5,673 nt of DNA. It comes from a virus. Lineage: Duplodnaviria > Heunggongvirae > Uroviricota > Caudoviricetes. The notes under the pieces are model-generated. The model searched no databases. It was given only the letters and a program-made list of their open reading frames with translations, and was not told the DNA's origin. The stretch is taken from IMG/VR virus record IMGVR_UViG_2706794682_000006; one strand, written 5' to 3'. The translations under genes were made by a program, and so were the position numbers. Positions 3,033-5,673 of this stretch are shown one piece after another; within the stretch, counting starts at the first letter, position 1; every line of letters starts with the position of its first letter.

Positions 3033-5673
3033 ATGGCAGTAAAGATTTCAGGTGTACTGAAAGACGGCACAGGAAAACCGGTACAGAACTGCACAATCCA
3101 GCTGAAAGCAAAACGTAACAGCACCACGGTGGTGGTGAACACGCTGGCCTCAGAAAATCCGGATGAAGCCGGGCGTTACAGCATGGACGTTGAGTACGGG
3201 CAGTACAGCGTTATTCTGTTGGTGGAGGGATTCCCGCCGTCACATGCCGGGACCATCACCGTGTATGAAGATTCCCGACCCGGTACGCTGAATGATTTTC
3301 TCGGTGCCATGACGGAGGATGATGCCCGTCCGGAGGCTCTGCGCCGTTTTGAACTGATGGTGGAAGAGGTGGCGCGTAACGCGTCCGCGGTGGCACAGAA
3401 CACGGCAGCCGCGAAGAAGTCAGCCAGTGATGCCGGCACATCTGCCCGTGAGGCGGCAACCCATGCGACTGATGCTGCAGGCTCAGCGCGTGCAGCCAGC
3501 ACGTCAGCCGGACAGGCCGCGACTTCGGCTCAGGAGGCGTCTTCCAGCGCAGGAACGGCATCAACAAAGGCCACTGAAGCATCAAAAAGTGCTGCCGCTG
3601 CAGAGTCCTCAAAAAGCGCGGCGGCCACCAGTGCCGGTGCGGCGAAAACGTCAGAAACGAATGCTGCAGCGTCACAAAAATCAGCAGCCACTTCTGCATC
3701 CACTGCGACAACGAAAGCGTCAGAAGCCGCCACTTCAGCCAGAGATGCGGCGGCCTCCAAAGAGGCGGCAAAATCATCAGAAACGAACGCCTCCACAAGC
3801 GCCAGCAGTGCAGCCTCCTCGGCAACGGCGGCAGGAAATTCCGTGAAGGCGGCAAAAACGTCCGAGACGAATGCTAAGTCTTCTGAAACGGCAGCGGAAC
3901 AGAGCGCCTCAGCTGCGGCAGACTCTGAGACAGCAGCTGCATCATCGGCCCGTGAGGCGTCCATTAAGGCAGAGGAGGCAGCAGTCAGTGCCACCGCCGC
4001 CGGAAAATCGGCAGAAAGCGCCGCATCATCCGCTTCAACAGCCACAACGAAGGCTGGCGAAGCCACTGAACAGGCCAGCGCAGCAGCGAGGTCTGCTTCC
4101 GCAGCGAAGACATCCGAAACGAACGCGAAAGCGTCGGAAACAAGCGCAGAATCCTCAAAAACGGCTGCCGCATCGTCAGCCAGTTCGGCGGCGTCATCGG
4201 CATCATCGGCGTCTGCTTCAAAAGATGAGGCGACCAGACAAGCGTCAGCAGCGAAGAGCAGCGCCACGACGGCATCCACGAAGGCGACAGAGGCTGCTGG
4301 CAGTGCGACGGCGGCAGCTCAGAGCAAAAGTACGGCGGAATCCGCGGCAACGCGCGCCGAGACAGCAGCTAAACGGGCAGAGGATATTGCATCCGCCGTG
4401 GCGCTTGAGGATGCGAGCACGACGAAAAAGGGGATAGTACAGCTCAGCAGTGCGACCAACAGCACTTCCGAGTCACTGGCGGCAACGCCAAAGGCAGTAA
4501 AAGCAGCCTATGACAATGCAGAGAAACGTCTGCAGAAAGACCAGAACGGTGCTGATATCCCCGACAAGGGCCGCTTCCTGAATAACATTAATGTTTACAG
4601 CAAAGGTGAAGTGGATAAGAAAAAGGGGATGCGAAAATACACTTTCTCTGCTCCTGCAAATGCAGTAAGCGGTAAGTGGTATCCTATAGTCTTTCGCCGA
4701 TCTGGAGGCGGTACCGATGAATTAGCCTCACGAGTTGTGATAACTACTTATTCCTCAGCTGGCGGATACGCCATGAATAATTGTGAATTTAATGGGTTTG
4801 TTATGCCTGGCGGTTGGTCTGATCGCGGTTCATATGCGGCTGGTTTTTTCTCAATATATTCTACTGCTGAGCGAGCTATACACTCGATTATTTCAAGTGT
4901 GAAAGATGACGATTTGTGTAGTGTATTTTACGTTGAAGCCAGAGCATTTCCTATCAAGATATTTGCTGAGGAGGGCTTGAACGTAATTGTTCCAACTACT
5001 GACTATACCGTTGGTCAAGCCACCTATAAGTGGGGGGCCACAGATCCAGTAGCAGAAAGTACAAATACTCAAACCATTCTGGATTTTAAAAATGGACGTG
5101 GTTATTACTGCTCACATCAGTTTGTTTCAAGCCTTTCAGGAAATGCAGCAACAGCAACGAAATTAGCAAGTTCAATAAACATAGGTGGTGTATCCTTTGA
5201 TGGTTCAGCCGATATAGATTTGCCTGGTGTGAATACAAAAGGTAATCAAGACACTACCGGTAATGCAGCGACAGCGACCAAGTTGCAGACAGCATGTACT
5301 ATCAACGGCGTCTCGTTTGATGGTTCTAAAGATATTGAACTTAACCCACGGTCTATAGGCACGATCAACTCCACAACAATGTCTTTTAGTGGTGGTGCTG
5401 GATGGTTCAAGCTGGCAACGGTAACCATGCCGCAGGCGAGTTCTGTTGTTTCAATTACGTTGATTGGTGGGGCTGGATATAACGTCGGTTCACCTCAACA
5501 GGCAGGTATATCTGAACTTGTTTTGCGTGCAGGTAATGGTAATCCGAAGGGGATTACTGGTGCTTTATGGCAGCGCACATCGGCAGGGTTTACAAATTTT
5601 GCCTGGGTCAATACATCTGGTGATACTTACGATATTTACGTTGCAATCGGAAATTATGCGACTGGTGTAAATA
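3033..5673 (+). CDS. stf: Side tail fibre protein (Stf), N-terminal ~880 codons; 3'-partial (no stop before window end). Lambda-Stf-like N-terminal region joined to a divergent distal receptor-binding region
   Basis: ATG at 3033 is the first ATG after an in-frame TGA at 2991-2993 and is preceded by GGGG (3024-3027). Hand translation of frame 0 shows no stop through 5672. The N-terminus MAVKISGVLKDGTGKPVQNCTIQLKAKRNSTTVVVNT...GRYSMDVEYGQYSVIL...TITVYEDS matches my recollection of lambda Stf (orf-401) almost residue for residue, followed by a long Ala/Ser/Thr-rich region and ...KKGIVQLSSATNSTSESLAATPKAVK. The distal part carries two tail-fibre repeat units. It is absent from the ORF track only because that track needs a stop codon. 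Confidence 0.88.
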   Translation, partial: MAVKISGVLKDGTGKPVQNCTIQLKAKRNSTTVVVNTLASENPDEAGRYSMDVEYGQYSVILLVEGFPPSHAGTITVYEDSRPGTLNDFLGAMTEDDARPEALRRFELMVEEVARNASAVAQNTAAAKKSASDAGTSAREAATHATDAAGSARAASTSAGQAATSAQEASSSAGTASTKATEASKSAAAAESSKSAAATSAGAAKTSETNAAASQKSAATSASTATTKASEAATSARDAAASKEAAKSSETNASTSASSAASSATAAGNSVKAAKTSETNAKSSETAAEQSASAAADSETAAASSAREASIKAEEAAVSATAAGKSAESAASSASTATTKAGEATEQASAAARSASAAKTSETNAKASETSAESSKTAAASSASSAASSASSASASKDEATRQASAAKSSATTASTKATEAAGSATAAAQSKSTAESAATRAETAAKRAEDIASAVALEDASTTKKGIVQLSSATNSTSESLAATPKAVKAAYDNAEKRLQKDQNGADIPDKGRFLNNINVYSKGEVDKKKGMRKYTFSAPANAVSGKWYPIVFRRSGGGTDELASRVVITTYSSAGGYAMNNCEFNGFVMPGGWSDRGSYAAGFFSIYSTAERAIHSIISSVKDDDLCSVFYVEARAFPIKIFAEEGLNVIVPTTDYTVGQATYKWGATDPVAESTNTQTILDFKNGRGYYCSHQFVSSLSGNAATATKLASSINIGGVSFDGSADIDLPGVNTKGNQDTTGNAATATKLQTACTINGVSFDGSKDIELNPRSIGTINSTTMSFSGGAGWFKLATVTMPQASSVVSITLIGGAGYNVGSPQQAGISELVLRAGNGNPKGITGALWQRTSAGFTNFAWVNTSGDTYDIYVAIGNYATGVN
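3400..4430 (+). repeat. Low-complexity Ala/Ser/Thr/Lys/Glu-rich coding repeat region inside stf, with imperfect internal DNA repeats
   Basis: Recurrent peptide motifs K-T-S-E-T-N-A (nt 3649-3669, 3855-3875, 4108-4128; related S-S-E-T-N-A at 3775-3792) and S-A-S-T-A-T-T-K-A-(S/G)-E-A (3693-3728 and 4029-4064). The codons are dominated by GCN/TCN/ACN, which creates long stop-free runs in other frames and on the antisense strand. Confidence 0.8.
5139..5342 (+). repeat. Two copies of a phage tail-fibre repeat motif within stf (protein-level tandem repeat, units 40 codons apart)
   Basis: Unit 1 at 5139-5222 is GNAATATKLASSINIGGVSFDGSADIDL; unit 2 at 5259-5342 is GNAATATKLQTACTINGVSFDGSKDIEL. Both are in the stf frame. 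The motif GNAATA(T)KL...(R/C)TINGV.FDGS..I resembles what I recall as the 'phage tail fibre repeat' seen in T4 gp34-type and many enterobacterial prophage tail fibres. Codon usage differs between the two units, so the duplication is not recent. Confidence 0.75.

Follow-up and report, generated by a model that had tools for sequence, protein, structure and literature searches.

The window, that is, the whole 5,673-nt stretch of DNA analyzed here, belongs to a virus of the Caudoviricetes (IMG/VR record IMGVR_UViG_2706794682_000006) and carries the 5′ part of a side tail fiber gene, stf, whose product contains a predicted all-β globular domain of ~165 residues, referred to below as the knob (Stf residues 530–699; nt 4620..5129, plus strand). 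The stf open reading frame (ORF) starts with the ATG at 3033 on the plus strand and exceeds the window end (3033..5673), with 880 codons present. Upstream lie the 3′ end of a lambda-type J gene (22–2301) and lom (2369–2968), the latter between J and stf. The ORF encodes a lambdoid side tail fiber protein, because its residues 1–134 match the full profile of PF08400 (phage_tail_N, E = 1.1e-71) and because stf of an Escherichia coli TH9F11 prophage is followed by a tail fiber assembly gene. In this prophage, the DNA of which is 100% identical to the window over the knob segment (4620–5135), stf is 1156 codons long and the gene order is J–lom–stf–tfa, followed by host genes. The full-length Stf carries a PF07484 Collar domain (residues 926–973), and its C-terminal Collar/His-rich tip is ~70% identical to lambda orf-314.

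The knob is preceded by an Ala/Ser/Thr-rich low-complexity shaft (Stf 135–455; 3435..4397, plus strand), in which Ala, Ser, and Thr make up 72.9% of the residues and which has 0% aromatics and no Cys. This shaft is ~72% identical to that of lambda orf-401 and, by homology, would form the proximal coiled coil of the fiber; residues 102–393 of Ur-lambda Stf have been described as a coiled coil (PMC12617516). The shaft region also holds several long ORFs in other reading frames or on the opposite strand (3176–4437, both strands), for example 3530–4279 on the minus strand (249 residues) and 3871–4437 on the plus strand (188 residues). Their translations are of low complexity, and they look like by-products of a biased, repetitive codon content and not like genes. 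The shaft and the knob are joined by a conserved linker of 74 residues (Stf 456–529; 4398..4619, plus strand), with the sequence ALEDASTTKKGIVQLSS...AATPKAVK...NNINVYSKGEVD. It resembles part of the phage Mu tail fiber protein S, matching residues 109–173 of chains 5yvq/8ju3 with E values of 1e-17 to 1e-19.

Directly after the knob come two repeats of the form GNAATATKL...(I/V)NGVSFDGS, recognized by reading the sequence (Stf 703–730, nt 5139–5222, and Stf 743–770, nt 5259–5342, both on the plus strand). Fragments bearing such repeats are annotated with PF03406 in precomputed data; our Pfam scan did not call this family on Stf, whether as encoded in the window or at full length. The repeats are followed by a second aromatic-rich module (Stf 771 to ~917; 5343..5673, plus strand, cut at the window end), with 11% aromatics, a match to PHROG 6722/21552 at Stf 766–880, and no Pfam hit. 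This module is probably globular and, like the knob, part of the exchangeable cassette.

The original prediction, made from the letters alone, placed at 4620–5135 a non-fibrous, probably globular segment of ~170 residues in the distal tail fiber, between the low-complexity shaft and the tail-fiber repeats. Translation of the plus strand reproduces its peptide, in frame with the ORF from the ATG at 3033, and the 166-residue string that it quoted corresponds to Stf 535–700 (nt 4635–5132). The composition is as described, with 15.1% Phe, Trp, and Tyr and three Cys (Stf 584, 629, and 693), and chance falls far short of explaining the contrast with the shaft, as the segment represents a conserved family. 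The placement is also right, with shaft and linker upstream and the two GNAATATKL repeats downstream. The term "distal" applies insofar as the segment opens the distal half of the fiber, while within the protein it occupies the middle (residues 530–700 of 1156). At ~Stf 529–699 by hidden Markov model (HMM), with ~163 match positions, the conserved domain falls slightly short of the predicted segment.

Fold and family of the knob

All structure predictions were made on monomers. With a shallow alignment of 24 close sequences as input, AlphaFold2 first gave a mediocre model (pLDDT 68). A second run used an alignment, A3, of 39 diverse relatives, recovered by a profile search of the full library and trimmed to the domain, and reached a pLDDT of 91.8 and a pTM of 0.89, all five models being at or above 91.0. 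The model consists of 13–14 antiparallel β-strands, the helical parts being short turns only. When compared by Foldseek with predicted viral structures, it finds the same fold, predicted separately, in fibers of JenK1, Vibrio phage phi 3, Aeromonas phages pAh6-C and phiAS4, and Escherichia phage navn (TM 0.83–0.94, 29–61% identity). Since the model is confident and the homologues share its fold, the segment is an independent globular β-domain, in line with the prediction that it is non-fibrous, and no continuation of a fibrous β-helix. No match to a characterized fiber shaft segment was found.

Solved structures provided no counterpart: Foldseek found no match in the PDB at E < 1e-3, sequence and profile searches with the segment and the 39-member family recovered no related PDB chain, and no Pfam or NCBIfam model covers the segment or any of the 39 family members. 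Accordingly, the knob is modeled as a jelly-roll-like β-sandwich that lacks a close solved relative. Weak matches to antibody VH domains (E ≥ 0.02) were judged to be chance or a generic β-sandwich signal.

A globular fold predicted from single chains might be an artefact if the segment were in reality an intertwined trimeric β-prism, like domains P3–P5 of T4 gp34; the monomeric nature of the predictions and the pLDDT of the first model speak for this. The later model is confident, however, and gp34 similarity is absent, which makes such an artefact very improbable. In gp34, P3–P5 (PDB 4UXE family) are β-stranded globular domains that punctuate the trimeric fiber shaft, and P5, the largest, has been proposed as the start site of folding and trimerization (PMC5537660). 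These domains are β-prisms to which each chain contributes one sheet around a shared core, whereas the knob is predicted to form a sandwich within each chain. No similarity between gp34 and the knob was detectable by sequence, profile, or fold. PF21446 (Gp34_trimer) gave no match on the window's Stf or on the segment at E ≤ 1, nor on the full-length Stf at E ≤ 0.001; one A3 member reached E = 0.061 only, and the hhalign probability was 0.4%.

A PF21446 match at residues 663–762 of StfR (L004), the side tail fiber protein of the K-12 Rac prophage, and at 614–726 of protein P0040 does enter the last ~40 residues of the knob, which form its C-terminal strands. The homology to gp34 P domains that this overlap raised was rejected, as the true gp34 similarity is downstream of the knob and absent from the window's Stf. 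The boundary of the PF21446 model seems to take in part of a different domain.

Profile searches recover the knob in dozens of fiber proteins, with E values from 1e-26 to 1e-97. The window sequence (row 1 of A3) belongs to this StfR-type family, as it matches the profile over its full ~165 residues (224 bits, E = 2.6e-70, positions 2–167, envelope Stf 529–699) and carries all the invariant positions. There are eleven of these in A3: P12, P22, T43, N53, F57, G59, G65, G75, Y104, F110, and P111. A further four residues, M52, C55, D68, and E84, are conserved at 90% or more. The most conserved part is the central block 43–117, with the loops PMNNC and GGWSD, while residues 28–42, 94–99, and 118–150 are variable. 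In the window, the recognizable motifs of the knob are, on the plus strand, (P/A)MNNC (4770–4784), GGWSDRG (4809–4829), ERAIHSI (4869–4889), and FYVEARAFP (4926–4952). C55 and H88 are each substituted in several A3 members, so the family has no conserved catalytic set; a catalytic Cys/His was ruled out, neither residue being invariant. Common to phages of several genera, this pattern of conservation suits a constraint on the fold and on a subunit or stacking interface better than a host-specific binding site.

The family is widespread. The knob has DNA matches, both chromosomal and on plasmids of ~100 kb, in 115 of 5426 complete E. coli genomes, and tblastn finds it in 261–270 phage records. 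The phage carriers include 9g-like siphoviruses (HdSG1, 93.6% DNA identity), lambdoid phages, Drexlerviridae, T5-like lateral fibers (HildyBeyeler, BF23), rV5-like fibers (MaxBurger and EmilHeitz among them), and T4-like gp36/gp37 of Aeromonas, Vibrio, and Stenotrophomonas phages. Each protein has one copy, always internal in complete proteins, and the N-terminal anchors of the knob-bearing proteins are unrelated to each other, as are their tips. The domain was sought in lambda Stf, T5 pb1, and T4 gp34/36/37 and found in none of them; thus, it is an optional module.

In HdSG1 (L001, 5001–5517), the knob coding region is split over two annotated coding sequences, HdSG1_00041 ending at 5426 and HdSG1_00042 starting at 5385, and tblastn needs two pieces to cover it, which indicates a frameshift or a sequencing error within this record's knob. 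About 18 records of 135–143 kb named "Campylobacter phage" (MG065644, MG065674, MG065646, and others) share their rV5-type fiber knob with Escherichia Vequintavirus phages, with 30–32% identity to the knob of the window and ~42% to that of the T5-like HildyBeyeler, and the host labels look doubtful. Finally, the predicted 252-residue protein P0020 fuses a ParB-like nuclease N terminus (PF02195; compare Rac YnaK) to an StfR-type linker and a knob fragment, and probably represents what a deletion has left of a Rac-like cryptic prophage.

Mosaic boundaries of the fiber cassette

The original prediction also named a related domain at the equivalent position in some E. coli prophage side tail fibers (Rac StfR type), and such a relative indeed exists. 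StfR of E. coli K-12 (b1372) carries its knob at residues 530–698, 57% identical over 169 residues and equal in position to that of the window's Stf. The two proteins are at least 93% identical through residue 510; identity drops at ~515 and averages 57% across the knob, similarity is gone over 690–930, and identity returns to 97–100% in the Collar region (Stf 931–1020) and at the C-terminal end. The central cassette of StfR is another allele, in which a gp34-like element comes after the knob (StfR 706–775 matches T4 gp34 1036–1105, and PF21446 is also called on StfR), whereas the window's Stf has the GNAATATKL repeats and a different second module. The mosaic breakpoint is sharp and falls at about nt 4575–4616 (Stf ~515–528), in the 3′ part of the linker, where identity to StfR falls to ~55% (Stf 511–540).

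The whole block Stf 518–917 is 94.5% identical to residues 54–453 of the variable fiber protein of a P1-like plasmid (L003, 4806–6650), in which the knob lies in the variable fiber segment adjoining the invertase gene. Given this match, the knob opens an exchangeable cassette of ~400 residues comprising the knob, the repeats, and the second globular module. Taken together, the breakpoint and the 94.5% identity imply that such cassettes are exchanged between lambdoid prophages and phage-plasmids. In the plasmid itself, an IS3-family transposase (L003, 6621–7850) disrupts the 3′ end of the knob-bearing variable fiber gene, and this fiber copy is therefore probably non-functional.

The place of the cassette in the fiber can be approached through Ur-lambda Stf, which shares family and gene position with the window's Stf and is homologous to it in the collar domain, the proximal coiled coil, the AATPKAVK linker, and the C-terminal Collar/His-rich tip. 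Its hinge has been located at residues 394–422 (PMC12617516). This hinge directly follows the AATPKAVK..MDETNRK motif, which is common to the window's Stf, and the window's cassette starts at the hinge site. In lambda Stf (774 residues), the knob and the whole ~400-residue cassette are missing, and the hinge leads straight into the distal part. From this alignment, we infer that the knob lies just distal to the knee or hinge.

Proposed role and competing explanations

With the fold predicted for it, its family, its always internal and optional occurrence, and the mosaic boundaries observed here, the knob may well be an optional self-folding structural node at the start of the distal half-fiber, a role that we favor at about even confidence. 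In this arrangement, each of the three chains would fold its ~165 residues into its own β-sandwich, giving a three-lobed knob on the trimeric shaft. The conserved proximal part, made up of the collar domain, the coiled coil, and the Mu S-like linker or hinge, would lead into the ~400-residue cassette, with the knob as its first element, ahead of the lambda-type Collar and His-rich tip. Just past the knee, the knob could switch the fiber from an α-helical coiled coil to a β-structured distal shaft, hold the chains of the trimer in register, and make the distal half-fiber longer and stiffer, while receptor specificity would reside mainly in the C-terminal tip and Tfa.

Several points weigh against this role. 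The packing on the threefold axis and the N-to-C geometry are extrapolated beyond the monomer predictions. The knob is not generally required, since lambda Stf, T5 pb1, and T4 gp34/36/37 assemble in its absence. It moves along with the variable, host-range portion of the fiber, a behavior equally compatible with binding, and the well-conserved PMNNC and GGWSD loops could form a ligand or ion site. Our literature search found no experiment on the knob domain.

The main rival is an accessory receptor-binding knob, which would bind surface glycans (O-antigen, lipopolysaccharide core, or capsule) with low affinity as a second, lateral contact, aiding reversible adsorption ahead of receptor engagement by the tip. 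The movement of the knob with the host-range cassette and its β-sandwich with variable loops agree with such a function. Nevertheless, all fold similarities remain at the generic β-sandwich level, with no lectin-level match and an empty Foldseek search of the PDB at the threshold given above; the candidate binding residues W66, R69, and H88 vary, with no ligand-site conservation; the best-conserved parts recur in phages that differ in genus and in the surface glycans concerned; and the knob is never at the fiber tip. We therefore regard accessory binding as a real but rather unlikely alternative, and the lectin-like role considered in the original prediction is neither shown nor excluded. A broader proposal, which we advance tentatively and consider unlikely, is that the knob, instead of being a passive spacer, serves as a conserved and portable second site of binding to a surface glycan or another virion component, so that fibers with the cassette would attach at two points or in two steps. 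If so, knob swapping would be an unrecognized route of host-range change, common to lambdoid, P1-like, T5-like, rV5-like, 9g-like, and T4-like phages.

The knob might also be a docking platform, an attachment point for another fiber, an adhesin, or a baseplate component, as in branched fiber networks. It occurs in the lateral fibers of Vequintavirinae (MaxBurger bas54_0027 and EmilHeitz bas49_0026), phages that build multi-fiber networks, and the RBPseg study puts some mobile pseudo-domains of those fibers where other baseplate fibers interact (PMC12143355). However, the knob is only tentatively equated with these pseudo-domains, single-fiber phages such as the T5-like HildyBeyeler also carry the knob, and no partner fiber is evident, because only tfa and then host genes follow stf here and P1-like elements encode only S and U. 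Docking is accordingly doubtful. The two other functions raised in the original prediction, an enzyme (depolymerase or esterase) and an intramolecular chaperone, the latter here pictured as removed after assembly, are very improbable: for an enzyme, the 13–14-strand antiparallel β-domain is neither a parallel β-helix nor SGNH, matches no enzyme family, and has no invariant nucleophile or base or any other invariant polar or catalytic set, and a chaperone is rejected because the knob is internal, with ~455 residues after it in the window's Stf and no PF13884 match on it, and because the fibers have separate chaperones, either Tfa or a C-terminal Peptidase_S74 that relatives carry apart from the knob.

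Which hosts a phage can infect is set by its tail fibers, and these proteins are being re-engineered for phage therapy and DNA delivery, lambda Stf chimeras among them. The knob module is common and located at a natural recombination junction, but neither a Pfam or NCBIfam model nor a solved structure exists for it. The boundaries at Stf 530–699 and the optional, self-folding character of the unit suggest a rational splice point for chimeric fibers, and the knob is a clear target for structure and binding studies.

Comparison with known fiber and tailspike domains

The knob is a known kind of element, a globular fiber knob, of a family that is uncurated in databases and uncharacterized. Since globular knobs in fiber shafts have been known from the time of the T4 fiber work, its presence is not surprising. 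A candidate for the same domain is D42 of RBPseg, an unannotated and abundant "unique mobile domain" of BASEL phage fibers, of unknown function, which occurs in T5-like (TC7) and Vequintavirinae (TC12) fibers and in one fiber with a carboxypeptidase-like coiled-coil N terminus, and which has low-resolution cryo-EM support in MaxBurger and EmilHeitz (PMC12143355). D42 and the knob are found in the same groups, these two phages included. The knob lies at residues 592–769 of MaxBurger bas54_0027, which has a C-terminal S74, and of EmilHeitz bas49_0026, which lacks S74, and these knob-bearing lateral fibers fit the descriptions of RBP_11 and RBP_10, respectively (PMC12143355). On the other hand, TC12 fibers are reported to have two copies of D42, whereas only one copy of the knob is detectable there. 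Equivalence of the knob with D42 is plausible but tentative.

The closest known systems also include the jelly-roll β-sandwich that comes after the β-helix in tailspike-like trimers such as Pantoea WceF (6TGF) and the Acinetobacter phage tailspikes 6C72, 8OQ0, 5W5P, and 6E1R.

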